Assembly: GCA_046269625.1 (NCBI GenBank)
Contig: JBJURY010222185.1
Coordinates: forward strand, 1-64,000
Length of the DNA: 64,000 bases
Direction of reading: 5' to 3'
DNA from: Hausera hauseri
Lineage: Eukaryota
Both the position numbers and the translations under genes were made by a program. This document shows, in pieces, positions 22,213 through 62,952 of the stretch. Positions within the stretch are counted from its first letter, which is position 1; each line of letters begins with the position of its first letter. The notes under the pieces are model-generated. The model was not told where the DNA came from. It saw nothing but the letters and a program-made list of their open reading frames with translations, and did not search any database.

Positions 22213-23118
22213 ATGGCTATTTCGCGCGCACAGGCCCTCAAAGAACTGTTTCCGGGCCTTAACGCCCTGTTCGGTCTTGAGTACGCCAAGTACGAAAACG
22301 AGCATGCTGAGATTTATGAGACCGAATCCTCGGAGCGTAGCTTCGAAGAAGAAGTCAAGTTGTCCGGCTTTGGTGCAGCTCCGGTGAAACCGGAAGGCTC
22401 CGCCATCTCGTACGACAACGCACAGGAATCGTTCACCGCTCGTTACAACCACGAGACGGTGGCCATGGGCTTCTCGATCACCGAAGAAGCTATGGAAGAC
22501 AACCTGTACGACTCGCTCTCGGCTCGCTACACCAAGGCGCTCGCTCGTGCCATGGCGTACACCAAGCAGGTCAAGGCGGCTTCGCTGCTGAATACGGGCT
22601 TCACCACCTTCACCTCGGGTGACGGCGTGACTCTGTTCAACTCGGCGCACCCCACCGTTGCTGGCGGCACCAACGCCAACCGTCCTTCGGTTGACGCCGA
22701 CCTCAACGAGACCTCGCTGGAACAAGCGGTCATCGACATCGCTGCTTACAAAGACGAACGCGGTCTGCTGATCGCTGCTCGTCCGCGCAAGCTGATTGTT
22801 CCGCCGAGCCTGATGTTCGTTGCGACTCGTCTGCTGCAGACCGAGCTGCGTGTCGGCACCGCCGATAACGACATCAACGCGCTGAACACCAACGGGTCGA
22901 TCCCCGAAGGCTATCGCGTGAACCACTACCTGACGGACAATGACGCGTGGTACCTCACCACCGACATCCCGAACGGTATGAAGCACTTCGTCCGTGTCGC
23001 TATGTCGACTTCTATGGACGGGGATTTTGACACCGGCAACGTTCGCTATAAGGCACGGGAGCGCTACAGTTTCGGCGTTAGCGACCCGCTGGCAATGTAC
23101 GCATCGCCGGGCGCGTAA
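22213..23118 (+). CDS. major capsid protein
   Basis: MAISRAQ..KEL.PGLNALFG.EY...GDFDTGNVRYKARERYSFG; strong codon bias; followed by a terminator. Confidence 0.85.
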   Translation: MAISRAQALKELFPGLNALFGLEYAKYENEHAEIYETESSERSFEEEVKLSGFGAAPVKPEGSAISYDNAQESFTARYNHETVAMGFSITEEAMEDNLYDSLSARYTKALARAMAYTKQVKAASLLNTGFTTFTSGDGVTLFNSAHPTVAGGTNANRPSVDADLNETSLEQAVIDIAAYKDERGLLIAARPRKLIVPPSLMFVATRLLQTELRVGTADNDINALNTNGSIPEGYRVNHYLTDNDAWYLTTDIPNGMKHFVRVAMSTSMDGDFDTGNVRYKARERYSFGVSDPLAMYASPGA

Positions 23119-23171: not shown

Positions 23172-23256
23172 ACCATAAGCGATATAAAGCTAGAGTATTA
23201 TGTTGACCCCACGTCTTTTGTTTTATATCTATACTTTACCAACACAGGAGCTCGCT

Positions 23257-24192
23257 ATGTCCGTCATTTATCAGATCACCAATATGCTTACCGGGGACTT
23301 CTATATCGGTAGCGCGCAGTCATTTGCCCGCCGGGAGTGGCAGCACCGTTACGCTCTCAAGCGCAACGAGCATAAGAACCCCCACATGCAGTCCTCGTGG
23401 AACAAGTATGGGGAGGAGGTATTTGTCTTCGAGGTACTCGAGGAGGTGCCAGATGAAGAAGACGTCCTCGCGGCGGAGAACAAGTACCTCCATAAGCATG
23501 TTGGGCAGCACAACTGCTTCAATGTGAACAAGGACGCTCTTGCCCCGAGGCTCGGGCAGGTCATGACCGCCGAGTCCAAGGCCAAGCTTAGCGAGAGCAG
23601 GAAGGGCAAGGGCGCGGGCGAAGAGCATTACCGGTACGGCCAAGAAGTATCCGCAGAGGTACGTGCCAAGATCAGTGAGACACAAAAAGGCCGCCAGAGC
23701 CCGATGAAGGGCAAGAAGATGTCCGAGCAGGGGCGAGCCAACGTCGCAGCCGCCGTGACGCGCGGCGCAGATTCGCACTTCTATGGGAAGCGCCCAGCGA
23801 GCGCTGACGAATTGCAGAAGGCAATCACGGCGCAGTATTCGGACGGGCGGCAAGAAACTTACCCTAGCTTGACACACATCCGCGATACATTTGGTGTGTC
23901 GCTTATGACGACTATCCGGGCATGCAAGAGCGGAAACCGTGTGGAGCGCGGGGCTTTTGCGGGGGCACTCATGTGGTATGCAGATTCTGAAAAACCCGCT
24001 TTGGCAGATGAACAAGTCCCCGCAGAGTACGCCGATCTTCCGCGCACGCGAACTGAGGCTAAACGTCTTGGGGCTAAGAAGTACTTTACTGGGGAACCGT
24101 GCACGCATGGCCACGTAGCGCCCAGATACACTAAGGGTATGTGCGTAGCCTGCGCGGCAGAGGGGCAAAGAGCTAGGGCTCGTAAGCTCTAG
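23257..24192 (+). CDS. GIY-YIG homing endonuclease with NUMOD3-like repeats
   Basis: VIYQITN....FYIGSA; R...H...L....H.N...Q..WNKYG; ESKAKLSES/EVRAKISE repeats. Confidence 0.85.
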   Translation: MSVIYQITNMLTGDFYIGSAQSFARREWQHRYALKRNEHKNPHMQSSWNKYGEEVFVFEVLEEVPDEEDVLAAENKYLHKHVGQHNCFNVNKDALAPRLGQVMTAESKAKLSESRKGKGAGEEHYRYGQEVSAEVRAKISETQKGRQSPMKGKKMSEQGRANVAAAVTRGADSHFYGKRPASADELQKAITAQYSDGRQETYPSLTHIRDTFGVSLMTTIRACKSGNRVERGAFAGALMWYADSEKPALADEQVPAEYADLPRTRTEAKRLGAKKYFTGEPCTHGHVAPRYTKGMCVACAAEGQRARARKL

Positions 24193-45345: not shown

Positions 45346-48300
45346 ATGGGTGTCATTCAGGTTCCGGGCCGTCTGAGCGGGAAGACCTACAGCGTCAAGA
45401 TCAAGGGCGACACTCCGTCCGAGACTGAGCAGGCACGCATCCGTGCGTATCTGGACGAGCAGGAAGGCGCTTTTGTACAGGACTTCTCGCAGCGCTTTGG
45501 TTTTACGCCCCCCACTCCCGACGACGGCACGGCTCTCGGTCGCGGCTTTGAGCGCGGCAAGGCCGGTGCAAAGTCCCTTCTCGGCACCACTGTGGAAACT
45601 ATCGGCCAGCAGGTCGGCCTGCCCAGCATCGCCGAATATGGCCGGGGTATGGAGGAAGCCGCTGCACAGCGGCAGTTCGAGCTGAGCCTCCTGCAGCCTG
45701 CACCGACGACGCGCCAAGATGTTGCTGCAGCCGAGGGCTTCTTCCCGACTATCGGCGCGGGGCTTACCTATGCTGGTGAACTTGCGGGTGAACAGATTCC
45801 GCAGTTGGGTGTTGGTTTGGCGGGTGGCGCTGCTGGTGCTGTCGTTGGCGGCCTTACGTCGGGACCCGCCGGGGCTCTGGCTGGTTTCGGTATCGGCTCC
45901 GGTCTTACCGAGGCACCTCTGCTGTTCGGTTCCAACGTCCAGCGCCAAGAGGAAGAAGTCGCAGCCGGGCGCAAAGCCTCTGTCGATCTCACTGATGCCC
46001 TCAGCGCTACCGTCGGGCAGGCGGGGCTCACTGCTGTTACCAATGCGCTGGCCGGTGCAGGCGTGTTCGTCCGCCCCGGTGCCAAGCTCTTTACCCGCGC
46101 CCTGTCAGGCGCAGCTGTCGGCGGCACAACGGAATCTTTGAACGAAGTCGGCCAGCAGATGCTGGAGCGCTATCAGGCCGGTCTGCCGATTGATAGCCCC
46201 GAGGCCATCCAAGAATACATCGACGCTGGTGTGGCTGGCGGCGTTCTCGGGTTCGGTGCTGGCGGTCTTGGCGGCGCTATCGGTGGACCGCGTCCTGCAG
46301 AGGCACCCGAGGCACCCGAGGGTGCCGAAGTCCCTGCCCCTGCTCCGGCGGCGGAACCCACTACCACCGCACCGGTGGCCACCCCCGAAGAAGTTGCTGC
46401 AGCTGCACAAGAAGTGACGGCGGAACCTGTTGTCGCCCCGGAACCTGTTGTCGCCCCGGAACCTGTCGTTGCCCCGGAGCCTGTTGCCGCGGCTCCAAAA
46501 CCTGCTGCCCCGGAACCTGTCGCAGCGACGGAGCCTGTTGTCGCCCCGAAGCCTGTCGTTGTCCCGGAGCCTATTGCCCCCGCCCCCGCCCCGACAGTCG
46601 CGGCTGATGATTACTATACTCCTATGGAGACCGAGGAGGAGGCGTTCGAACGGGCGGCGCAAATCTATGCGCCGAAACCTGAGTATCGCGAAGAGGCCGA
46701 GGCTGTCACAGCAAAGCAAGAACAGCTGGCGCTGGAGCTCGCTCCCGAGACGCGCACTGCTGTGCCAGCGGTCAAGCAGGGGCAGCCTGAACAGGTCTTG
46801 ACCGACGACCTCGTGACTCAGCTTGGCGTTCGCCCGGCGAAATCGGCGTCGTTGCGTAAACTGGTAGGGAAACCCCTAACGGACACCAAGGTGATCCGTG
46901 CACTGGACAGTTGGGCCCAGAATGATCGTGCGACTCCTGAAAACAAGGCTATGGCGCGCAGTCTTATCACTGGGCAACCTATGCCGGAGGCCCCGGCTAT
47001 CGCCCCCACGCAGGAGGTCGCAGATGTCCCCGAGATTGCAGCGCCTCAGTCAGAAGAAGTGGGAGCTGGCGCTCCGAGTGGTGGACAAGGCGTGGAAGGA
47101 GGCGGACGGCCCGCTGACGACACTGGAGGCCCCGCCGGGGTTGAAGCACCTACAAGCGGAGGACTGGGAGGAGGTTTGCCGCTGTCTGTGGGTCCTGCAG
47201 CTGCAGAGGGAGAACAACCAGCTGCACTGATTGAAGCACCTAACCTCAGCACACCGGTCGTCCAGCAGCCGACACTCCGGCGTGAACAGGGCATGAATAT
47301 TGTGCAGGCGGGGCAAGTCATTCCTGCCCCCGTGCGGGTGCCGCAGGCACAAACCATGTCGCCCGTGCAGCGTGTCACAGCGCAGCAGTTGGATCAGGCT
47401 CTTGCCACTCGGTACGAGACCTTGACTCCGCCGGACGTCAAGCGCGGTGCGAAGTTCTTGAACGAGCGGGGCGTGCAGGGCACTGTCCCCGATAAGCTGA
47501 CCATTGCCGATAAGCAGGTCGTCATCAATCTGCTGGCTACGCGGGATGATCTCCTGTCGCCGCAGGCCAAGTCCGCGAAACTTTATTTCTCCAAGGTGGC
47601 TCGCCCCATGGAGGCCGTGCTGATGGTCGTTGATGACCTGACCGCACCTTACGGCAAGTATCGCGCTGAACCCGGCACCGACCCCTACACCCGTGCGTTC
47701 CTGTCCCAGACCGGTACCGTAGCAGCCAAGCAGGCGCTCGAGTTCATCAAGACCCGTATGTCCAAGGAATTGAACAGCGAGGTTACGTTCCGGCAGGACC
47801 TGAGCGCGCAGCAAAACGCGAATATCGAGACATGGGTCAGTGATCTCGACCGGGTCGAACTCAAGCGGGCCGAACGGCTCCGCGAGAGGGAAGCACGCTT
47901 CGAGGCCGCAAAAGAATCTGGCTATGTCGACGAGACGCAGATCAACTCCATGACTGCGAAGAACCCGCTGGCGGCGCTCGACAAGCCCATGCACTACGCG
48001 GTGAAGGCTGCACTCGACGCGGGCGATCTGCGCGGGGCACTCCGTGCCGTGGCTACGACGACGAACAACGCGGAACTTGCGGCGCTTGCAAACAAGTTCG
48101 CCGACCTCGCCGGAACCACCCGGGTGCGGACGCTCTACGAGGGCGACTCCGCTAAATACATTGGCCGAGACCGTGCCGTGTTCGTGCAGCAGGCGGAAGG
48201 CGTTGATCCTGAGTATGAGAACATCATTCTCATCAACGGCTATACCGGGATGACCACCCACGTGTTTATGCACGAGATGGCGCATGTGGTGACGAGCCGA

Positions 48301-51300
48301 CTCCTCAACACGCAGCCTAACCACCCGGTGACTAAGCAGCTGGCACAGCTCCTCTCGAGCCTGCGGGACGCTGCACCGCCGAATATCACCTACAAGGAAG
48401 GCGACTTCTACGGGCTCTCCAGCGTCAGTGAGATGGTGGCGGAGGCTTTCGGGCGTCTCACTCTTGGCGAAAACGACAATGGCCTGCGTGACCTGATGAA
48501 GCGCACGGCTTATACCAAGTACACCCCTGTCACGAAAGAGCTGCCCCTGACCAACTGGGAGCGGTTCAAGGAGGTTGTCGGCAATTTCATGCGTGGGCTG
48601 ATCGGTCTCCCGGCGAAGCCGTACCCGCGCCGCACAGTGAAGTCGACTATCGAGTCGCAAGAGAGCGGGCTGGACCGGTTCCACCGACTGATCGACGGCC
48701 TGCTGTCCGAGGCACCGCAGGTGCTTCCCGACTACGTGTTCGACAAAACGCTAATTAGCCCCATGACGGCTAGGACGGTGCTTAACAACGCCATCCAGAA
48801 CGCCCCTACGTGGGACAAAGCGGGTATGAACCGCCTCTCTAATCAGATGCAGGCGTCCATTCCTAATCCGCTGCGCCGCACGTTGTTGGGCTTGCTGCAC
48901 CTCGACTGGTTCAACGACCTCGCTGGGAAATATTTCCCGCAGATTGCGGAACTCAAGCGCCTCGACGACGAGCGCCGTGGCGAAATCATTCGCATGGCGG
49001 ACAAAGCGAAGCCAGTTCTCGAAGACCTGCAGACGTATTCGGAAAAGCAGCCCGCGCTGTTCTCGCAGCTGATGGCCATCATGGGCCGTGCGACCATCGA
49101 AGAAGTCGATCCGACCAAACCTGTGTCCGCATATGGTGCAGACCAAGACAAGGTGAAGATTTGGCACGATCTTAACCGCGAAATGACCTCGGCGGACTCG
49201 ACGGGGGAACTGCGCACCCTGTTTAAGAAGGTCCGCAACATGTATCAGGGCTACCGCGACGAGATCGCGAACGTCCTGCGTGAGCGGGTCAAGGAGATTT
49301 CAGAAGACGTTGCAACGCAGAACCAACTGTTTGCACGCCTGATGGCAAAGATGGATGAAGAGGGCGTTATTGACCCCTACTTCGCCCTGATGCGTAAAGG
49401 GGACTTCTGGCTGTCTTACACCGCCGAGGATACCACTGCAGACCCTGTGTCGCTCGACCCCGAAACCGGGCTTTCCCAGCGCCCCGTCACCAAATTCGTG
49501 CAGACCTTCGAGTCCGCATGGGAGCGGCAGCAGTTCCTTGACAAGCTGCGTGCGACTAAGGACGCGCAGGGTAACGACGTGGCATGGGACTACGAGGAAT
49601 ACATGCGCCCCCTCGCGTTCAACGCGGGGCAAATGGTGCCTAGCTCCTTCGTGCAGGGCGCGATCAACATCATCAACACCACGGTGCCGGAGACCAAGGA
49701 CGCTGCAGCGAAAGAGCGCGCGGATGCGGCTATCAGCGCCATCCAAGACATGTTCGTGCGGTTCACCCCCGAGCACTCGCTGATGAAGTCCTTCACCAAA
49801 CGTAAGGGCACCCGGGGTTTTGTCGGCGATATCACGCCGCTCGGTGTCGTAGACCGTCCGGTAGACATGGTGCAGTTGCTGGCGGAGAAGTCGTCCGGGC
49901 TTGCCTACCAGCTCTCGAACATGAAGTACGGGGCTAAAATTCAGAAGCTCCGTAACGATGCACAGACCCAGTACAAGACGCTCAATGCTTCTCCCGCACT
50001 CACCGCCGGGGAAAAAGTAGCGGTGCTGGCCTACCTCGAAGAGTTCGACGACCGCGCCAAGTTTGCTCAGAGCCCGCATGTTAGCCAAGCCGCGCAGCTG
50101 ACGCGCGGGGTTACGTTCGGTATGACGCTCGGGTTTAGCATCGCCGGTACGGCTAACAACCTCATGCAAATCCCCATGATCGGTACGACCGAACTCGGCG
50201 GGCGCTATGGTATGGCTGGGGCCATTCGGGAACTCGGGTCAGCTGCACGGCTCCTGATGAACGCGGGCAAGACCCACAAGGTCCGTTCTTACGGTGCCGA
50301 CGGCATGGAGACCCGCGAGCTGTCCGGGGTCGACAACTTCGGCTCGATGGCCAACTACTTTGAGGTAGACGACGCCGGTAGATACACGCTGCGCACGGAC
50401 AAAAAGATTCCGGCTAAGTTGCGGAGCAAAATCGGCGATCTGGATGCGCTCGTTGAAGTGATGTCCGCTAATGGCATGCTCGCCAACTCTATGGCGCAGG
50501 AGATGCTCGAGGCAGACGCAGGGTGGCTGCAGAAGATTAACCGCTGGTCCGGTTTCCTGATGCACCACGCCGAACGCTTTAACCGGCAGGTTATGGCCAT
50601 CGCTGCCTACAACCTCGAACTCGGCAAGGCCAAGGCCGGTGGAGGCTCGCTCGACTACGAGACGAAACTCGCCGCCGCAAAGAAGGCCGTCGAGATCACT
50701 GAACGTGTGAACGGCAGCATCGGTGCCTCCACTGCACCGCGCTGGGCTCAAGGTCCCATCGGCTCTATCGTGTTCATGTTTAAGCGGTTCGGTCTGCATA
50801 TGGCCCGCTACATCATCGGCACGGCCGATCAAACCATCCGCGGTATGTCGAAAGAAGATCGGGCGGTCGCGCGCTATCAGATCATCGGCATGCTGGGCAC
50901 CACAGCGCTCTTTGCGGGCGTGCAGGGTCTCCCGTTCTTCGGGGAACTCATGTCGATCTTCAACCTGCTCTTTACCGAGGACGACGAGGAACCGGCAGAA
51001 GTCGTCATCCAGAAGTTCCTTGGCGAACCCTACTACAACGGTGCGATCAACTACCTGACCGGTGCCGAAGTCGCCTCGCGTATCTCGATGAGCGGTCTGA
51101 TCTTCCGTGAGAACCGCATCGAGAAGGACCAGAGCATCGCCTACGACATCTTCGAGTCGCTCGGTGGTCCGGCTGTTGGCGTGTTCATGAACGTGGAGCG
51201 TGGTATGGAGCTGCTCTCGCAGGGCGAACTGTATCGCGGCGTCGAAGCCATGATGCCCTCGGCGGTCAAGAGCGTGATGAAGTCCGTCCGGTTCGGCACC

Positions 51301-51723
51301 GAGGGTGCCACCACCCTGCGGGGCAACGAGATCGTGCCGGTGTCTAACTGGGACCTTGCCCTGCAGGCGGTCGGCTACACGCCCGGTGCCTATGCACGGC
51401 AGCAAGAGCGCGTCTCTGGAGAGAAGCGTATCGACAAGGCTATCGTGTCGGAGCGTCGGTCGCTGCTTCTCAAGTACAACATGGCTTTCGCCGAAGGCGA
51501 CTTCGAGACGGTGCGTGAAGTGCTCAAGGATATGTTCGAGTTCAGCAAGAAGCACCCGGAGGCGGCTATCACCGCGGACACTCTGGAGCGGTCTGGGCGG
51601 AGCTTCTCGCAGCGGACGTCGGAGATGATTGGGGGTGTGACCTTCACGCCGTCCTACCTACCCCGTGCACAGAAGTCGATCAGCGAGTACGACCAAGACA
51701 TCTCGTTCTGGGGGTCGGAATAA
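45346..51723 (+). CDS. large (2125 aa) internal virion / polyvalent-type protein with zincin-like HExxH
   Basis: last late gene; G-rich hydrophobic N-terminus, EPVVAP repeats, FMHEMAH...EMVAE, helical C-terminus. Confidence 0.75.
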   Translation: MGVIQVPGRLSGKTYSVKIKGDTPSETEQARIRAYLDEQEGAFVQDFSQRFGFTPPTPDDGTALGRGFERGKAGAKSLLGTTVETIGQQVGLPSIAEYGRGMEEAAAQRQFELSLLQPAPTTRQDVAAAEGFFPTIGAGLTYAGELAGEQIPQLGVGLAGGAAGAVVGGLTSGPAGALAGFGIGSGLTEAPLLFGSNVQRQEEEVAAGRKASVDLTDALSATVGQAGLTAVTNALAGAGVFVRPGAKLFTRALSGAAVGGTTESLNEVGQQMLERYQAGLPIDSPEAIQEYIDAGVAGGVLGFGAGGLGGAIGGPRPAEAPEAPEGAEVPAPAPAAEPTTTAPVATPEEVAAAAQEVTAEPVVAPEPVVAPEPVVAPEPVAAAPKPAAPEPVAATEPVVAPKPVVVPEPIAPAPAPTVAADDYYTPMETEEEAFERAAQIYAPKPEYREEAEAVTAKQEQLALELAPETRTAVPAVKQGQPEQVLTDDLVTQLGVRPAKSASLRKLVGKPLTDTKVIRALDSWAQNDRATPENKAMARSLITGQPMPEAPAIAPTQEVADVPEIAAPQSEEVGAGAPSGGQGVEGGGRPADDTGGPAGVEAPTSGGLGGGLPLSVGPAAAEGEQPAALIEAPNLSTPVVQQPTLRREQGMNIVQAGQVIPAPVRVPQAQTMSPVQRVTAQQLDQALATRYETLTPPDVKRGAKFLNERGVQGTVPDKLTIADKQVVINLLATRDDLLSPQAKSAKLYFSKVARPMEAVLMVVDDLTAPYGKYRAEPGTDPYTRAFLSQTGTVAAKQALEFIKTRMSKELNSEVTFRQDLSAQQNANIETWVSDLDRVELKRAERLREREARFEAAKESGYVDETQINSMTAKNPLAALDKPMHYAVKAALDAGDLRGALRAVATTTNNAELAALANKFADLAGTTRVRTLYEGDSAKYIGRDRAVFVQQAEGVDPEYENIILINGYTGMTTHVFMHEMAHVVTSRLLNTQPNHPVTKQLAQLLSSLRDAAPPNITYKEGDFYGLSSVSEMVAEAFGRLTLGENDNGLRDLMKRTAYTKYTPVTKELPLTNWERFKEVVGNFMRGLIGLPAKPYPRRTVKSTIESQESGLDRFHRLIDGLLSEAPQVLPDYVFDKTLISPMTARTVLNNAIQNAPTWDKAGMNRLSNQMQASIPNPLRRTLLGLLHLDWFNDLAGKYFPQIAELKRLDDERRGEIIRMADKAKPVLEDLQTYSEKQPALFSQLMAIMGRATIEEVDPTKPVSAYGADQDKVKIWHDLNREMTSADSTGELRTLFKKVRNMYQGYRDEIANVLRERVKEISEDVATQNQLFARLMAKMDEEGVIDPYFALMRKGDFWLSYTAEDTTADPVSLDPETGLSQRPVTKFVQTFESAWERQQFLDKLRATKDAQGNDVAWDYEEYMRPLAFNAGQMVPSSFVQGAINIINTTVPETKDAAAKERADAAISAIQDMFVRFTPEHSLMKSFTKRKGTRGFVGDITPLGVVDRPVDMVQLLAEKSSGLAYQLSNMKYGAKIQKLRNDAQTQYKTLNASPALTAGEKVAVLAYLEEFDDRAKFAQSPHVSQAAQLTRGVTFGMTLGFSIAGTANNLMQIPMIGTTELGGRYGMAGAIRELGSAARLLMNAGKTHKVRSYGADGMETRELSGVDNFGSMANYFEVDDAGRYTLRTDKKIPAKLRSKIGDLDALVEVMSANGMLANSMAQEMLEADAGWLQKINRWSGFLMHHAERFNRQVMAIAAYNLELGKAKAGGGSLDYETKLAAAKKAVEITERVNGSIGASTAPRWAQGPIGSIVFMFKRFGLHMARYIIGTADQTIRGMSKEDRAVARYQIIGMLGTTALFAGVQGLPFFGELMSIFNLLFTEDDEEPAEVVIQKFLGEPYYNGAINYLTGAEVASRISMSGLIFRENRIEKDQSIAYDIFESLGGPAVGVFMNVERGMELLSQGELYRGVEAMMPSAVKSVMKSVRFGTEGATTLRGNEIVPVSNWDLALQAVGYTPGAYARQQERVSGEKRIDKAIVSERRSLLLKYNMAFAEGDFETVREVLKDMFEFSKKHPEAAITADTLERSGRSFSQRTSEMIGGVTFTPSYLPRAQKSISEYDQDISFWGSE
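46423..46580 (+). repeat. 18-bp coding repeats (EPVVAP)
   Basis: GAACCTGTTGTCGCCCCG units. Confidence 0.75.
47024..47230 (+). CDS. small gene overprinted (+1 frame) inside the large virion protein
   Basis: AGGAGG 6 nt before the ATG; 68-aa helical product; host frame there is a G/P/A/E linker. Confidence 0.5.
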   Translation: MSPRLQRLSQKKWELALRVVDKAWKEADGPLTTLEAPPGLKHLQAEDWEEVCRCLWVLQLQRENNQLH

Positions 51724-55869: not shown

Positions 55870-56091
55870 TTAGTTACCGTTGTCGAAGTTCATTTCCAGC
55901 TGCACGGGCGCTTTCGGCGCGTTCAGCAGGGCGGTTTCCAGTTCGCGCAGGCTGAACCGGTAGGTGTTGCCAACCTTGATGTAGGTGTGCTTCGGGATCG
56001 TGCCGTTACGCAGCCACTTGCGGAGCGTAGCAACCGACACGGCGAAGTGCTTGGACGCTTCCTCGATGTTGGCGAAGGGTGTATCGGACAT
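55870..56091 (-). CDS. excisionase/MerR-like HTH DNA-binding protein
   Basis: IEEA..HF.VS..TLRKWLRNG.IP...IKVG..YRF. Confidence 0.8.
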   Translation of the reverse strand: MSDTPFANIEEASKHFAVSVATLRKWLRNGTIPKHTYIKVGNTYRFSLRELETALLNAPKAPVQLEMNFDNGN

Positions 56092-56516
56092 TACTTCTTC
56101 CTCACAGTAATGACGTATTCGCTGTCCGAGTTGAGCCCCGGGGGCAGCACGTCAGGGTTCTCTTCAAGGAACTGCTTCACCACAGTCTGATTGAGGCGCT
56201 TCTCGTAGAACTGCGGGACCCCGTTTTCCAAGATGAACTTGTTCATCGAGTCCCAGTCGTTGGTCCAGTAGCGCGTCTTCATAGTGCGGTAGAACGTCCC
56301 GGCGGGGGTGCGGACGCTGTCGATGCCCTGCGTCTTGCAGTAGTCGAGCAGCTCCGACTTGAGGGCATTGAGCTGCATCTCCAAGACTTCATCCCGCTGC
56401 TCGAACTCTGCTTTGAGCTCGGCCCGCTTGTCGCGGATTTTGATGTAGGTCTTGGTCAGCTGCTCAGGGGTGAGAGCGGAGCCGCTCTCGGTGTCAGTGT
56501 CGGTGTCGGTAGGCAT
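56091..56516 (-). CDS. conserved replication-region protein
   Basis: YIKIRD coiled coil; SVRT.AGT; DW....FI. Confidence 0.7.
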   Translation of the reverse strand: MPTDTDTDTESGSALTPEQLTKTYIKIRDKRAELKAEFEQRDEVLEMQLNALKSELLDYCKTQGIDSVRTPAGTFYRTMKTRYWTNDWDSMNKFILENGVPQFYEKRLNQTVVKQFLEENPDVLPPGLNSDSEYVITVRKK

Positions 56517-56566: not shown

Positions 56567-58981
56567 CTAGTCAAGCAATTCCTTATACAGGTCGACGACC
56601 TTGGTATGCACGTCGATCTTCTCGTCGAGCAGCTTGTAGACCCGGCGCTCCACGCCAGAGCCCTGCAGCTGGACCACGGTGCACTTATTGACCTGCCCCT
56701 TGCGGTGCACCCGGGCGTTAGCCTGTGCGTAGGTCTCGAGCGAGGATGTCGGTGCCCACCAGACCACCGTGTTGGCCGCCGTTAGGGTCACGCCGTGCGC
56801 CGCAGCCTGCGGCTGGATGACCAGCACCCGAGGATCGGGCTGCTCTTGGAACTGCTTGAAGATCGAGGTCCTCGCTCCGGCGCTCACCTCGCCGCTGATG
56901 ACGGCGTTAGTAATACCGTCCTTGGCCAGCTGCTCCGACAGCATATTGATGACGTGCTTGAACGGTACGAACACCAGCACCTTGTGGGTGCTTTCGGCGA
57001 TGACCTCTTTGAGAACGCTGTAGCGGTTGCCGATGTCGAACTGCACCGTGTCGCCGGATTCGGTATAGCTTGCGCCCGCTGAGATTTGCAGGAGCTTGCC
57101 CATCATCACAGCCGCGTTGACCGCGGTGATCTGCTCACCGGCCACTTCCATGACCATCTGGTTCTTGAGGCGCTTGTAGTAGAGCTCTTGCTGCTTCGTC
57201 AGCGCGACGTCCCGCTTGACGTAGACCATGTCCGGCAGGTCGAGGCACTCGTCCTTGGTGTAGCGGATGGCAGGCTGCAGGGCGCTATGCACGGTGCGCT
57301 CGGAGTTCTCCTTGGGCTTCCAGCGATACTGGGAGACCTTATACATCACCATGTCTTTCCAAGCGTTGAAGAACTTGGGCACGCCCGCCGGGTTGACCAG
57401 CTTTGCCAAGCCGTAGGCGTCCTCGGGCCCTTGAGCCGCAGGGGTGCCGGTCATCATCCAGAGCCACATGTCGGGCTTCACCAACGAGTTCAGCACCTTC
57501 CAGCGCTTGCTCTGGGCGTTCTTGTAGTGGCTGCAGTTGTGCACTAGGTGGGCGTTTTCCCCAACAAAATAGTTAGGCGTTCCACTAACTTCGAGGTTAT
57601 AGACGTATTCGTCACATCTCGGTTCGCGATACGTAACACTGTCCACCCGAGCTCCGAAAGTTTTTCCATTTTCCGCCGATCCCGCTCCTGACCTTTCGTC
57701 GTGCGGTGGCTGTTTCCATCCACTTCCAACCCAAGTTTCTTCTCCGGCCACGCGAAGTCGAGCTTGTAGTTCGTAGGATAGCCGGGCTGCCTCTTTCCCA
57801 ACGCTACTGGGAAGTTCCATATCCAACCAACCGGAAGCTGCGACGACACCAATACCTCCGCCGCTGTTAGGCCCGTACCGTTCCCACCCCGAACCACTGG
57901 ACGAATCCCCTTCGCTTTCGCCACATCCGATAGATGCGCACGCTGCTCCGACGTCCGGTGAAACCCAGCGCGAACCCCTTTCGCCCTCTGCTCTTGCGTC
58001 AAGGATTTCAGTGCTGACTGACCCGGATGCAGGAGGTGCCATCTCTTCCGAGCGCAGGATCGAGAGCAAGACGTCCCCGTGCTCGACTGATGTTTCCGAT
58101 GAAACCGCCACTTCCGCATTATCACGGTGTACTGCGTTCCGCATATCGGACAAGCCAGCAAAACTGACAAGTCGTCTACCCGCAATAGCTCTGGCGGGAA
58201 CCCAACCCCAGTCAGTGAAGAAAGGATGTTCTGGAGTGCAGGTGATAATTTCTCCGGTTTCAAGTTTCACCTCCACCAGCCTGTTAGGCTTCCGCTTGGA
58301 CACCGTTTTTATATTACGTACCCCGTCACTTGCAAACACAGTGTCTCCGAGGGCCAAAGTTTCTATGGCCACCGGCCCGTTGGGGGTGTGCACGGGGGTG
58401 CCTGCGACAAAGCACTCGTCAACGATGATGAGGTCGTAGCCCGCAGCGGCGATATCATCCCGTACGATCTCTACACCGTCGTAGTTGATAATGAGGAACT
58501 CGGGCTTCCCGGCGATGATCTTCCGGCGCTTGTCGGCGGTGCCGTGAGCGATACCCACCGTGCGGTGCATGGCGAAGGTGAACAGGTCTGCATGCCACGC
58601 ACTGTCCATGATCGAGAGCGGGCAGATGACCATGGCACGCTTGATGATGCCCTGCTTCATGAGGAAGTCCGCAGCCCAGATCGCGCTGGCCGTCTTGCCG
58701 GTCCCGGCTTCGTTGAAGCAGAACGCCTTCTGGTTCATGGTCAGGAAGGACGCCGTCGTGCGCTGATGCGCCATCGGAGCGAACTTACCCGTCCAGTTGT
58801 AGCGGCCCTCGATGGGCGACGGCACCTTGATATTCAGCCCCCGCAGGGTGTGCGTCTCGGGCACGCCCCAGTTCACGATGACCTCGTGCTCGCTGATCGC
58901 CTTGCTCTTCGGGATGACCGTAGTGACTTGTTTTGGATTGCGTAGCTTGAGAAGCAACGCTTTACCGTCGATGATCTGCAT
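56567..58981 (-). CDS. SNF2-family helicase, intein-containing
   Basis: GTGKT, INYDG, IVDE|CSH, MTGTP, HGVTLT, QANARVHR.GQ. Confidence 0.92.
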   Translation of the reverse strand: MQIIDGKALLLKLRNPKQVTTVIPKSKAISEHEVIVNWGVPETHTLRGLNIKVPSPIEGRYNWTGKFAPMAHQRTTASFLTMNQKAFCFNEAGTGKTASAIWAADFLMKQGIIKRAMVICPLSIMDSAWHADLFTFAMHRTVGIAHGTADKRRKIIAGKPEFLIINYDGVEIVRDDIAAAGYDLIIVDECFVAGTPVHTPNGPVAIETLALGDTVFASDGVRNIKTVSKRKPNRLVEVKLETGEIITCTPEHPFFTDWGWVPARAIAGRRLVSFAGLSDMRNAVHRDNAEVAVSSETSVEHGDVLLSILRSEEMAPPASGSVSTEILDARAEGERGSRWVSPDVGAACASIGCGESEGDSSSGSGWERYGPNSGGGIGVVAASGWLDMELPSSVGKEAARLSYELQARLRVAGEETWVGSGWKQPPHDERSGAGSAENGKTFGARVDSVTYREPRCDEYVYNLEVSGTPNYFVGENAHLVHNCSHYKNAQSKRWKVLNSLVKPDMWLWMMTGTPAAQGPEDAYGLAKLVNPAGVPKFFNAWKDMVMYKVSQYRWKPKENSERTVHSALQPAIRYTKDECLDLPDMVYVKRDVALTKQQELYYKRLKNQMVMEVAGEQITAVNAAVMMGKLLQISAGASYTESGDTVQFDIGNRYSVLKEVIAESTHKVLVFVPFKHVINMLSEQLAKDGITNAVISGEVSAGARTSIFKQFQEQPDPRVLVIQPQAAAHGVTLTAANTVVWWAPTSSLETYAQANARVHRKGQVNKCTVVQLQGSGVERRVYKLLDEKIDVHTKVVDLYKELLD
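57536..58414 (-). mobile_element. intein in helicase motif II (293 aa)
   Basis: DE|CFVAGTPV block A, TPEHPF block B, VYNLEV..TPNYFV...LVHN|C. Confidence 0.93.
57544..58263 (-). CDS. Vsr/DUF559-like PD-(D/E)XK endonuclease overprinted in the helicase intein
   Basis: CPIC...CSRSC, then YKLDFAW...KLGLEVDG.SH...D..K...L...GWTVLRI; GGAGG 6 nt before the TTG. Confidence 0.8.
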   Translation of the reverse strand: MKPEKLSPALQNILSSLTGVGFPPELLRVDDLSVLLACPICGTQYTVIMRKWRFHRKHQSSTGTSCSRSCARKRWHLLHPGQSALKSLTQEQRAKGVRAGFHRTSEQRAHLSDVAKAKGIRPVVRGGNGTGLTAAEVLVSSQLPVGWIWNFPVALGKRQPGYPTNYKLDFAWPEKKLGLEVDGNSHRTTKGQERDRRKMEKLSELGWTVLRIANRDVTNTSITSKLVERLTILLGKTPT

Positions 58982-60289: not shown

Positions 60290-62952
60290 TACGTCTCTCC
60301 ATAGTTCTTGCCGATTCCGGCTTCACAGTCGACGGGAAGGCCCTCGGCCCACGCGGGGACCCAGCGCATACACTCTTCGACGTAGGACTTGCACGCTTCG
60401 GCGTCGTTGTCAGGAACACAGCATACGATGCTGTCATGCACAGTCAACACAACTCTGTATTTTTTACTAATTCGCAGCATTTGCTCGCCGATGATAAGTC
60501 TCGCCAGCGCCTGCGTTACGTTCTCGACCACCTTCCCGCCGTAGATACGGGTGCGTCCTATGCGGGTTTTGTAGGAATACTCGATGCCGCCCTTCTCGTT
60601 CTCGGCCTCTTCCAGCTCGTCGTAGCGGATCAGCAGGCCGTTGGGCAGCACGATGCCGGGAGCGCGGGTATCCACGCTGAGAACACCGTCCTTACCGAAG
60701 GGCATAGCGTCACCCCGCACCATGTATCGCAGCATGATACCGGCCTGCTTCCACATGCCCGAGATCATGTCGTTGGTCTCACGGTAGATGCCGATGATCT
60801 TGGCCGCCTCGTTCTTGGAGATGTCCACGCCGGAGTTCTTGAGGGCCAGCTGGAACTTCTCACCGCCCATGCCATAGCCGCAATTATGAACGATAAGCGG
60901 CCCCGCAGCAGTCGCAACTGTGTATCTGTTCCTCGGCCCGGCGAAGGCGATGTCGTAGGTCATCAATCTCTGCCTGTAGGTCTGCGACGCGGCGCTTGTT
61001 TCTCGCGTTCTCAGACTTTGTGGCGAAGCGGAGGTTCCCCGGCGCATACCCTTTTTCGTTGTCGATTCGGTCAAGGTCCCGCGCGGGGTCGTCCCAGCCC
61101 TCCAACGTGAGCAAATATCGAAGAAACGCTGCGCGGTCCGCACGCCATACCGCGTATACTTGGATGCCACGCCCCCCGTAGTGTGAGTATATTGCACAGG
61201 TTGGGGTATGGCAGCGCGATATACAGGACCCAATGCGGTTGAGCAGGCGCTTTCGATGAGCGTCGTCGGGTAACACACTGCGGTACTTGAGCCATCGCTT
61301 ACTGTTACTAGCTTGCTTGGCGCAAGCATTGCAGCGTGTTGTGCGCCCAGCCTTGAGGTTAGCGCGGTCCACCATGCCCTCCCACCCGCAAGAGCAGCGG
61401 ACGACAGGGTGCCAGCCGGAACCAGATTTTTGTTGCCAATCCCGGACCTCGAGCTCGCCGAACGTAGCGCCGACTGGAAAAGGGAAGGGCTTGTAATTAC
61501 CTCGAACCACCCCCGCCACCCACGTTCCGTTAGAATTTCGTGGTCCGGTGTTGCGGCGACCCCCGAGAACCGGACCGTCTCCTTCACCCCTTGCGGCACT
61601 ACACCCTTGTGCGTTACCCATTCCTCACCATCCCATACCATATCCGTAACTGTAATATTTACGATAGGAACCCAACCACGTGGCGTCAACACTTTTGTAT
61701 CCGCAGCGAAGCAACCGAGTACCGTGGTCTTACCCACGAACCGCTGGTCCTTGGTCACGTCGCTCTCGGCTACACCATAGATCGCTGAGGCCATCTTCTT
61801 GTAGACGTCGCCCTTGGACGCAAAGGTCTGCACCACGTCGTCCTGCCCAGCCAGCCACGCAAGCATGCGTGCTTCGATCTGTGACGAGTCGGACTCGACG
61901 ATGCTGTAGCCCTCGGGCGCGATGATGCACTTCTTGAGCGCCTTGGCGTTAGGCCCCCGACTAGGGAGGTTCTGCAGGTTGATCTTGTCGTCACCGCCCC
62001 AGCGGCCTGTGTGAGCCGCGTAGTAGCGCACCGGGACAGGCAGCTTGCCCCGCCCAGCGATGTCGATGAACCGCTGTGTGCGGGTCTCCTCGAGCGTAGA
62101 CTTCACCCCGAGCCGTGCGGCAGCCAGCGCCTGCACCTGCGGGTCGTCATCTTCCAGCAGGTCCTTCATGCCCTGATCGCTCTTAGCCAGTGCGTAGGTC
62201 ATGTTGCCCGTGGTGGGGCTGATCTTCATGGGGCAGGGCACCCCGAACTTACCGAGCAGTGCGGCAAACTTCGGGTTCGACATGAGGTCGGCCTTGTCCT
62301 CGACGCCAGCAGACTTGAGCAGGTCTTCCTTCATCATCTGCGTCTTACTGAGGTGCTCCTCGAGCCGCTCCCGGTCCAGCTCCAACGTAGGCTCAGTGAA
62401 CATACGCAGGGTCAGGTCGATCAGCTTGAGCTCCGACTTCGGGAACCCCCGAGACAGCATGATGTTGAAGATGTCGTAGGTCAGGTCTACGTCATTGACA
62501 CAGTAGCGCCCGTAGGCCGACAGCTCTTCCGGCGTGAAGTCGTTGCGGCGTTTCCCCTTGGCGTCCAGCACCTCGGTGCCTTTCTCCCCTACCCCGTAGT
62601 TTTCGGCGAGAGCCTTGAGGCTGGCACTCTTCTCGACGCCGTGGATCGCACGAGCCATGCAGAGCGTATCGAACAGCACCTTCGGACGGATGCCGAACCG
62701 CCAAGACATGATCGCACCATCGAACATCATGTTGTGCGCCAGCACCGCAGAGTTGGCCCAGTCGTATGATGCCAGTGCTTGCTTGATCGCACCGTGCGTC
62801 CCGGTGATCCACGCAGTCTCGCCGTCGTTGACCTTCACCCCCACCCCAATGACTTGGAAGCGAGGGTCACGGATATATTCTTCCGTGGTGATCTTAGACA
62901 GCGAGTAGTCTTTGTCGTAGTAGGTCTCCGTGTCTATAGTAATTACGTCCAT
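60289..62952 (-). CDS. polA: family A DNA polymerase, intein-containing
   Basis: DTET exonuclease, HN..FD, HTGRW, NLQN, DSSQIEAR, GK..VLG|CGYG, TVHDS. Confidence 0.95.
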   Translation of the reverse strand: MDVITIDTETYYDKDYSLSKITTEEYIRDPRFQVIGVGVKVNDGETAWITGTHGAIKQALASYDWANSAVLAHNMMFDGAIMSWRFGIRPKVLFDTLCMARAIHGVEKSASLKALAENYGVGEKGTEVLDAKGKRRNDFTPEELSAYGRYCVNDVDLTYDIFNIMLSRGFPKSELKLIDLTLRMFTEPTLELDRERLEEHLSKTQMMKEDLLKSAGVEDKADLMSNPKFAALLGKFGVPCPMKISPTTGNMTYALAKSDQGMKDLLEDDDPQVQALAAARLGVKSTLEETRTQRFIDIAGRGKLPVPVRYYAAHTGRWGGDDKINLQNLPSRGPNAKALKKCIIAPEGYSIVESDSSQIEARMLAWLAGQDDVVQTFASKGDVYKKMASAIYGVAESDVTKDQRFVGKTTVLGCFAADTKVLTPRGWVPIVNITVTDMVWDGEEWVTHKGVVPQGVKETVRFSGVAATPDHEILTERGWRGWFEVITSPSLFQSALRSASSRSGIGNKNLVPAGTLSSAALAGGRAWWTALTSRLGAQHAAMLAPSKLVTVSDGSSTAVCYPTTLIESACSTALGPVYRAAIPQPVQYTHTTGGVASKYTRYGVRTAQRFFDICSRWRAGTTPRGTLTESTTKKGMRRGTSASPQSLRTRETSAASQTYRQRLMTYDIAFAGPRNRYTVATAAGPLIVHNCGYGMGGEKFQLALKNSGVDISKNEAAKIIGIYRETNDMISGMWKQAGIMLRYMVRGDAMPFGKDGVLSVDTRAPGIVLPNGLLIRYDELEEAENEKGGIEYSYKTRIGRTRIYGGKVVENVTQALARLIIGEQMLRISKKYRVVLTVHDSIVCCVPDNDAEACKSYVEECMRWVPAWAEGLPVDCEAGIGKNYGET
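60883..61713 (-). mobile_element. intein in PolA motif B (277 aa)
   Basis: LG|CFAADTKV block A, TPDHEI block B, TYDI...NRYTV.....IVHN|C. Confidence 0.92.
60884..61621 (-). CDS. HNH-type endonuclease overprinted in the PolA intein (start uncertain)
   Basis: CSCG...C..C, RC.......YGGRGI, LDRIDN.KGY.PGNLRFAT.SEN..N. Confidence 0.82.
   Translation of the reverse strand: MGNAQGCSAARGEGDGPVLGGRRNTGPRNSNGTWVAGVVRGNYKPFPFPVGATFGELEVRDWQQKSGSGWHPVVRCSCGWEGMVDRANLKAGRTTRCNACAKQASNSKRWLKYRSVLPDDAHRKRLLNRIGSCISRCHTPTCAIYSHYGGRGIQVYAVWRADRAAFLRYLLTLEGWDDPARDLDRIDNEKGYAPGNLRFATKSENARNKRRVADLQAEIDDLRHRLRRAEEQIHSCDCCGAAYRS

Follow-up and report, generated by a model that had tools for sequence, protein, structure and literature searches.

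Nucleases encoded out of frame with the intein that carries them are already known in several arrangements. Actinobacteriophage inteins have been described with non-canonical endonuclease genes, including Vsr-like genes on the antisense strand and endonuclease VII (EndoVII) genes on the same strand (Gosselin, Arsenault and Gogarten, 10.1101/2025.01.02.630785), a cyanobacterial dnaX intein carries a LAGLIDADG nuclease in its +2 frame (Phillips, DeSimone and Gogarten, 10.64898/2026.09.14.751524, who credit Gorbalenya 1998), and Vsr-like genes lie between split inteins (Dassa 2009, PMC2677866). Here we analyse a further arrangement, found in contig JBJURY010222185.1 of assembly GCA_046269625.1 (positions 1 to 64,000, hereafter the window, 64,000 nucleotides), which by its gene content is a tailed-phage genome or most of one: a class 1 intein in an SNF2-type helicase gene of superfamily 2 (SF2), with a putative Vsr-like/EDxHD homing endonuclease gene nested within it in the +1 frame.

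This locus has features in common with each of the described systems. As in the inteins of Gosselin et al., the intein is contiguous, the nuclease (Vsr-like/EDxHD types included) occupies a separate frame, and there are signs of continued spread. Their Vsr-like genes, however, are antisense, and the non-canonical layouts, found there in genes for polymerase, capsid, terminase and thymidylate synthase, are called rare, with second open reading frames (ORFs) typically outside the splicing domain. The family described here is instead same-strand, at +1, inserted at Walker B in helicases and other NTPases, overlaps both splicing regions, and has this layout as its usual state. With the dnaX intein it shares a same-strand overlapping nuclease ORF with its own Shine-Dalgarno (SD) sequence, frame-dependent selection and a patchy distribution (10.64898/2026.09.14.751524), as well as an insertion site directly after Walker B (PMC4760082), but the dnaX nuclease is a LAGLIDADG enzyme at +2 in one cellular gene, while here Vsr-like nucleases occur at +1 in several phage genes, DnaX-like ones included. 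In the inteins of Dassa (PMC2677866), a same-strand Vsr-like gene likewise lies between the intein halves and overlaps the C-terminal half with its 3' end, but those inteins are split and act by trans-splicing; because the intein frame is open through the whole nuclease gene, the phage helicase intein is their unbroken counterpart. Our literature searches did not turn up a same-strand Vsr-like gene within an unbroken intein, although supplementary tables or subscription papers may contain one, nor did they turn up so wide an intein-nuclease family.

A nuclease gene nested in the helicase intein

The helicase gene and the elements within it are located as follows.

56567..58981, minus strand: SNF2-type (SF2) helicase precursor gene, 804 aa (511 aa extein plus 293 aa intein)
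57536..58414, minus strand: class 1 intein at the Walker B motif (DE/C), with Cys1, block B TPEH and terminal His-Asn
57544..58263, minus strand: nested +1-frame gene, putative Vsr-like/EDxHD homing endonuclease, 239 aa
58270..58274, minus strand: SD-like GGAGG, within GGAGGTG, ending 6 nt before the TTG
57544..57546, minus strand: nuclease stop TAG, inside the CTA-GTG of LVHN
58054..58152, minus strand: C-x2-C...C-x3-C zinc finger, nuclease residues 38-70, putative DNA-binding module
57589..57885, minus strand: nuclease domain, residues ~127-225, with E136, D169, E180, H186 and D195
57533..57535, minus strand: +1 Cys codon of the C-extein, whose first two bases travel with the intein and take the place of the first two of the Ala codon in empty alleles

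The helicase ORF matches the Pfam families SNF2-rel_dom, Helicase_C and Intein_splicing. Its intein corresponds to precursor residues 190-482 (879 nt; junctions DE/CFVAGT...LVHN/CSH), with CFVAGT directly following the Walker B residues DE. Taking an N-terminal Cys or Ser, a block B TxxH, a terminal His-Asn and a +1 Cys, Ser or Thr as the marks of a class 1 intein, the element has all four (C1, T60-P-E-H63, HN and +1 Cys), and both Intein_splicing and TIGR01445 match it above their cut-offs. These motifs, along with selection for an open frame, suggest that the intein splices. A fractured gene, in which a split intein would flank a free nuclease gene, with a stop closing the N-intein and a new start opening the C-intein, was rejected since the helicase frame is open across 804 codons.

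The nested ORF had been proposed in an earlier annotation made from the letters of the window alone (hereafter the original prediction), and its main features are all found in the sequence. The ORF runs from 58263 to 57544 within the intein (58414-57536), spans intein nt 152-871 of 879 and is open for 239 codons at +1 relative to the helicase frame, and the plus strand across it has many stops. The predicted motifs, CPIC...CSRSC and then DFAW...LEVDGNSH...GWTVLRI, are both read in this frame. A TGA at 58267-58269 closes the nuclease frame two codons 5' of the TTG start, and the GGAGGTG upstream of that start codes for V-E-V when read with the intein. As had been predicted, the codons of the intein-terminal LVHN conceal the TAG stop.

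These signals recur among close relatives. In 32 of 33, intein nt 151-160 contain a start codon, with TTG, ATG and GTG interchanging, and an SD-like 4-mer precedes the first start codon in 27 of 33. The stop at the TAG position is used in 43 of the 56 inteins whose nuclease frame reaches it, against a stop at the same position in 9 of the 33 inteins that end the nuclease earlier (Fisher p 6e-6, in a test that treats related sequences as independent), and the stop position thus appears to be favoured by selection. No RNA run was found among the sequencing runs listed as containing more than a small share of the locus.

Division of selection between the two frames

Selection was compared over five regions in 33 clustered close inteins (67 pairs above 75% nucleotide identity). 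Along these regions pN/pS was 0.19, 0.11, 0.99, 1.11 and 0.45 in the intein frame and 1.77, 2.85, 0.38, 0.26 and 1.07 in the +1 frame, all values being uncorrected and pooled over non-independent pairs, and the most variable codon position moves from the intein third position in the N-terminal splicing region to the nuclease third position in the middle. The high +1-frame values of the nuclease leader (2.85) and tail (1.07) indicate that the parts of the nuclease that overlap the splicing blocks are mostly passengers. The claim that almost the whole C-terminal splicing region is dual-coding therefore holds for the open frames, both of which run through the overlap, and not for constraint, of which the nuclease tail has little. 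The two frames divide the labour: the intein is maintained at the ends and the nuclease in the middle, the overlaps mainly supply start and stop signals, and the intein middle is only kept open in its own frame, otherwise unconstrained.

Keeping that frame open leaves a trace in the nuclease codons. A stop in the intein frame requires a nuclease codon ending in T before a codon beginning with AA, AG or GA, and is always avoidable by synonymous choice. Third-position T was found before these dinucleotides in 0 of 2739 cases, against 27-33% in other contexts, a zero that partly reflects the restriction of the parsing to open inteins; the count free of this bias is 158 of 165 (see below). When 88 related nuclease genes were reshuffled synonymously, the intein frame stayed open in 0.4% of shuffles on average, and the shuffles would introduce ~539 intein-frame stops across the 88 sequences, while the third frame had 802 stops observed against 774 in shuffles. 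At the level of sequence, these comparisons confirm the nested ORF as genuine dual coding and not a chance frame. In our reading, +1 nesting is cheap, as it would cost the nuclease no amino-acid changes and uncouple its level from that of the helicase; the in-frame forms described below show that the shift to +1 is not obligatory.

A putative Vsr-like nuclease of the EDxHD type

Pfam DUF559 matched nuclease residues 164-220 (E 7e-9, above the curated cut-off), and no NCBIfam family matched the protein. In an alignment of 50 sequences drawn from 81 homologues, D169, E180, H186 and D195 are invariant, E136 and the four zinc-finger Cys are present at 90% or more, and an RGGNG motif is conserved; the catalytic motif is intact in 102 of 106 inteins. 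The Cys region weakly resembles the ribosomal eL24 zinc finger (E 0.001). NUMOD-type DNA-binding repeats, which some EDxHD enzymes have at the N-terminus, were not matched by Pfam at E 0.01 in the whole nuclease, and the four-Cys finger was found instead. The predicted structure (mean pLDDT 85.5, pTM 0.52) exceeds pLDDT 90 over residues 21-80 and is of low confidence over the first 20, consistent with separately confident domains.

The best structural match of residues 127-239 was 3r3p (I-Bth0305I; Z 11.4, rmsd 2.9, 92 aligned), tied with the RAP-domain mitoribosomal protein 9g6k_L9 (Z 11.3), the DUF559 protein NGO0050 (3hrl, 11.2) and Vsr (1cw0, 10.8). Foldseek also placed 3r3p first (E 2.6e-3) and gave no match at E 0.001 or better. 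Hence the fold is Vsr-like, as the original prediction proposed, and cannot alone assign function. The active site is the His-containing Vsr/EDxHD variant rather than a canonical PD-(D/E)xK site. The D-H-D spacing of 17 and 9 equals that of I-Bth0305I D196/H213/D222 (PMC3239194), an equivalence based on spacing and fold rather than on a printed alignment with 3r3p. In the EVDGNSH stretch, Glu occupies the position of Vsr Phe62, and no Phe-Trp precedes the His. Phe62 and the DNA-intercalating Phe67/Trp68 are features of E. coli Vsr (PMC2677866, PMC3239194), and Glu in place of Phe62 is a mark of the Vsr-like homing family (Dassa, PMC2677866; Taylor 2011, PMC3239194). A Vsr T:G mismatch repair endonuclease was rejected on these grounds, the Vsr features being absent.

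Fold and catalytic set together point to an EDxHD-type homing enzyme. Enzymes of this type are homodimers that cleave the element-free allele close to where the element inserts, an activity on which, for the phage protein, the incongruence and flank conversion described below bear only indirectly. With I-Bth0305I it has in common the catalytic fold, the D-H-D spacing and an N-terminal DNA-binding region, putative in the phage protein, followed by a C-terminal nuclease; I-Bth0305I, however, is encoded in a group I intron, carries NUMOD repeats and targets recA (PMC3239194), whereas the phage protein has the four-Cys finger.

Conservation of the nested layout

A nuclease-profile search yielded 178 loci (177 fetched, with duplicates between collections, plus the window), in which a same-strand covering ORF was found at +1 in 162 and at +2 in 1, with antisense ORFs only in 4 and none in 11. 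Among the 165 strong matches (164 fetched, duplicates included, 157 of them nested, plus the window), 158 are nested at +1 beneath a long open host ORF with an intein C-terminus; the others are four free-standing genes (L092, L143, L161, L165) and three that lie in inteins interrupted in the intein frame itself (L126, L154, L156). The distant DUF559 matches L012 and L014-L023 have no long host ORF over them and represent a different context.

Because these loci had been found via the nuclease, the search was repeated from the intein side. A DE/CFVAGT junction pattern returned 116 stretches, and 70 of the 80 loci examined carry the +1 nuclease, the rest comprising four mini-inteins, four inteins located elsewhere whose HNH gene is at +2, and two loci cut short. 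The mini-inteins (L265, L268, L290, L291; 128-151 aa) occupy Walker B sites of other helicase-like genes and have no nested gene. The other-site inteins (L279, L280, L337, L341) lie near the end of apparent terminase genes, and their +2 genes are of the HNH_3 type. A splicing-domain profile, which was built from nuclease-bearing inteins and thus favours their kin, found the +1 nuclease in 80 of 80 loci and other frames in 0. All 38 matches in prokaryote genome contigs are nested at +1. With a Vsr-like fold and a frame conserved among related inteins, neither of the two findings named in the original prediction as contrary to it was made. Its view that Vsr-like enzymes are uncommon intein partners agrees with the literature we found, but the pairing is frequent in phage sequence collections. 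Three further family members (L076, L434, L455) sit at junctions other than DE/C.

Records of cultured phages also match the family (43 records). In the five opened (phi673, CP-T1, MR14, 104E43.1 and 1.088.O), the ORF is intact at +1 in a helicase intein and unannotated, only the helicase being annotated over it. When annotation omits such nested genes, the intein appears to have decayed to a nuclease-less state, which distorts counts of active versus dead inteins. One of the five, phi673, is a phage of the harmless bacterium Corynebacterium glutamicum; since a cultured phage carries a member, the claims made here are directly testable.

Mobility and the +1 cysteine

Among 80 loci retrieved with the C-extein, 76 were empty, 3 occupied and 1 without a junction. 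The +1 residue is Ala in 76 of 76 empty alleles, while at 106 distinct occupied sites it is Cys (78) or Ser (28), with Cys in 43 of 43 close ones. When viral contigs were scanned by pattern, Ala sites numbered at least 120, with 79 of the 80 retrieved matching this helicase, and the 5 matches to an empty Cys allele were all out of frame in unrelated DNA, with no helicase among them. In three independent runs, contigs ~98% identical to the window skip 881 nt, and two other letters give an Ala codon, so that the mobile unit is the intein plus two bases. As all empty alleles read DE/A, the element must bring its own +1 Cys. This changes the cleavage assay suggested in the original prediction, the proposed junction of which, DE/CSH, is what an occupied allele gives after splicing, whereas DE/ASH is the reading of natural empty alleles. 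The reading that runs with ~36% of the words carry only the intein was rejected, the three compared having exteins and no intein.

The histories of intein and exteins are incongruent. The window exteins are 97-98% identical to the empty allele L178, with mismatches clustered within ~100 nt of the junction, and the window intein shares 95.2% identity with the intein of L001, a locus where extein identity is 75-81% but peaks at 88-92% next to the junction. The intein tree pairs the window with L001 (support 100/100), whereas an extein subset of 24 rows rejects this pair (p-AU 1.7e-79), the pair having been named from identities before the topology test. In a 77-row extein quick tree, from which 99 nt on each side of the site were excluded, the patchy distribution of the intein needs 7 state changes, 5 of which starred branches make unavoidable; since the sampling of empty alleles was confined to the neighbourhood of the window, deep clades appear fully occupied. 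The pattern is that expected of recent homing with short flank conversion, and the incongruence supports the mobility role that had been predicted for the nuclease.

Gosselin et al. treat a +1 Ala as a barrier to invasion (10.1101/2025.01.02.630785). Judging from the alleles compared here, Ala evidently does not block invasion by this intein; it may slow it. A precedent is the haloarchaeal MCM-d intein, for which Pro-to-Ser co-conversion has been described, Pro alleles being invaded only rarely (Turgeman-Grott 2023, PMC10643990). In both cases there are empty alleles without a +1 nucleophile that the intein must co-convert, but some empty MCM-d alleles have Ser and conversion there is rare (PMC10643990), whereas every sampled empty allele of the helicase has Ala, and conversion thus seems to be the sole route in this helicase clade. 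Around the L178 empty site no inverted symmetry of at least 6 of 7 bases was found, so that a palindromic target like that of I-Bth0305I is not evident.

Proposed mechanism and alternatives

We consider it quite probable that the intein is actively homing and that an overlapping gene of its own encodes the endonuclease, with one mRNA giving two products. Drawing on established intein and homing biology for splicing, internal initiation, empty-allele cleavage and copying by double-strand-break repair, ribosomes starting at the helicase AUG would translate the whole 804-codon frame, and the intein, which carries an unconstrained insert of ~170 residues at the usual place of a nuclease, would splice out by its class 1 motifs to leave the 511-aa helicase. 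Other ribosomes would start at the internal SD-TTG, as its conserved signals and the selection on the +1 frame suggest, and produce the 239-aa zinc-finger and EDxHD nuclease. In mixed infections this enzyme would cut helicase genes that lack the intein, within the Walker B codons or close to them, and repair from the occupied allele would copy the intein and, with it, the two bases by which the +1 Ala codon becomes Cys, a change made necessary because splicing needs Cys. The Ala-to-Cys outcome itself is visible in the sequences.

Several observations weigh against this interpretation. Occupancy is low, with the intein in 3 of 79 close helicase loci that have a readable junction; TTG is a weak start, and an SD-like 4-mer is absent in 6 of 33 close relatives; the pN/pS values have the pooling and lack of correction noted above; the fold match is tied with RAP-domain and DUF559 proteins; a stop or frameshift interrupts the intein frame of the nuclease-bearing L126, L154 and L156; and relative to the near-identical strain X2, which has at least 11 changes in the ORF, 8 of the 11 listed are non-synonymous for the nuclease, none of them at a catalytic residue.

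Part of this evidence would also suit other explanations. The nuclease could arise by ribosomal frameshifting, fused to the N-extein and the N-terminal splicing region rather than initiated at its own start: the two frames are on the same strand with a +1 offset, the TTG and the 6 relatives lacking an SD-like 4-mer make for weak initiation signals, and the first 20 nuclease residues are low-confidence and unconstrained. We give this a small chance, given that a start codon falls at intein nt 151-160 in 32 of 33 relatives, that an SD-like 4-mer is present in 27, and that predicted relatives have an initial Met at the same place. A similarly small, if anything smaller, chance attaches to the possibility that Ala alleles are resistant leftovers, the intein spreading only among now-saturated Cys alleles, so that the nuclease would be real without routine Ala-to-Cys conversion. 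The split between 106 occupied sites with Cys or Ser and 76 empty ones with Ala is what this predicts, as is low occupancy, and it agrees with the barrier seen by Gosselin et al. (10.1101/2025.01.02.630785) and the rare invasion of Pro alleles reported by Turgeman-Grott et al. (PMC10643990). Yet the window extein falls inside the Ala alleles, where it is sister to L178 (99% support), Ala alleles surround at least three separate occupied tips, the intein and two bases are all that distinguishes three 98%-identical strains at the site, and the scan that found at least 120 Ala sites found no helicase among its 5 empty-Cys matches.

That the protein is a domesticated phage nuclease, serving repair, recombination or competitor exclusion and sitting in the intein by chance, appears very unlikely: its fold is common to the Vsr repair enzyme and four free-standing copies exist (L092, L143, L161, L165), but it is absent from most close relatives, travels with the intein across divergent exteins, and has the Glu in the Vsr Phe62 position that marks Vsr-like homing enzymes. 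The chance that the ORF is a dead relic or a chance frame is close to negligible; the non-synonymous excess among the few listed differences to strain X2 would fit decay, and is opposed by purifying selection in the +1 frame, by the 13 synonymous and 8 non-synonymous codon changes relative to L001 in the nuclease centre, and by the intact catalytic motif in 102 of 106 inteins.

Host genes and other forms of the family

Nested +1 relatives follow DE in SNF2, ResIII-type, DinG-like and strawberry-notch helicases and in DnaX-like clamp loaders, and one lies in the UvrD-like gene L152, where the start of the intein is off the contig. The host genes of L066, L068, L074, L083, L089 and L090 may be terminase-like, as hinted by one extein-region PHROG match (L074, E 1.7e-7) and junction similarity; the free-standing L092 groups with this nested clade. 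PolA inteins contain more distant nested relatives (L011, L013). Among longer proteins, a search gave 14 matches, 7 of which are UvrD proteins with a nuclease of the same subfamily in frame in a DE/C intein (P0085-P0088, P0091-P0093). P0089 ends after the N-intein and nuclease, and in P0090 the nuclease frame continues into the last part of the intein and the C-extein; these two are either frame transitions or assembly errors. In the free-standing L161 and L165, the nuclease gene directly precedes a helicase-like gene. Nested, in-frame and free forms are intermingled in the nuclease tree (70 rows, 103 columns, 6 of 67 branches starred), which is too weak to settle their order.

A broader reading, which we put forward tentatively and at slightly less than an even chance, is that one old and widespread intein-nuclease lineage specialised on Walker B has moved among SF2 and superfamily 1 (SF1) helicases, DnaX-like and terminase-like genes while keeping the nuclease at +1. 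Dual coding would then be a stable state and not an intermediate, the in-frame (UvrD) and free copies would be derived, sites without a +1 nucleophile would be routinely rewritten, and out-of-frame nucleases would maybe be the norm in some phage groups. If true, the target choice of inteins is not limited by the C/S/T rule, since codon rewriting would allow invasion of sites beyond it. The coexistence of nested, in-frame and free-standing forms in a family of this size makes it possible to test the model in which a nuclease first joins an intein as a gene of its own and is brought into frame afterwards. The family also offers a set of naturally occurring long gene overlaps that a simple rule maintains, and a clear case of an intein that supplies its own +1 Cys.

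Other features of the phage window

The terminase, portal and major capsid genes of the window are on the plus strand, and the DNA polymerase A, PD-(D/E)xK nuclease, SNF2 helicase and DUF927 genes, identified with Pfam, on the minus strand. Helicase genes near-identical to that of the window occur in freshwater, sediment and aquatic metagenome runs. Out-of-frame nucleases are present in all three inteins found in the window, and belong to three different families. The terminase large subunit contains a 303-aa intein (window 14976-15884, plus strand; +1 residue Thr) with an EndoVII gene in its +2 frame (15212-15796, plus strand; Pfam E 2.6e-18), which is the layout described by Gosselin et al. 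(10.1101/2025.01.02.630785). The DNA polymerase A gene contains a 277-aa intein (60883-61713, minus strand) with an HNH-type gene in the +2 frame (60884-61621, minus strand; PHROG E 9e-28), the TAA stop of which is concealed in the terminal His-Asn codons of the intein.

A GIY-YIG/NUMOD3 endonuclease gene (23200-24192, plus strand) directly follows the major capsid ORF (22213-23118, 301 aa), and may stand alone or belong to an intron in, or a split of, that gene. A 2125-aa protein with an LPD39 domain is encoded at 45346-51723 (plus strand), where the structural region ends. Finally, a 12-nt repeat-like stretch at 56488-56508, near the start of a Gam-like gene (56091-56516), has 12 nt fewer in all four sequencing runs compared.

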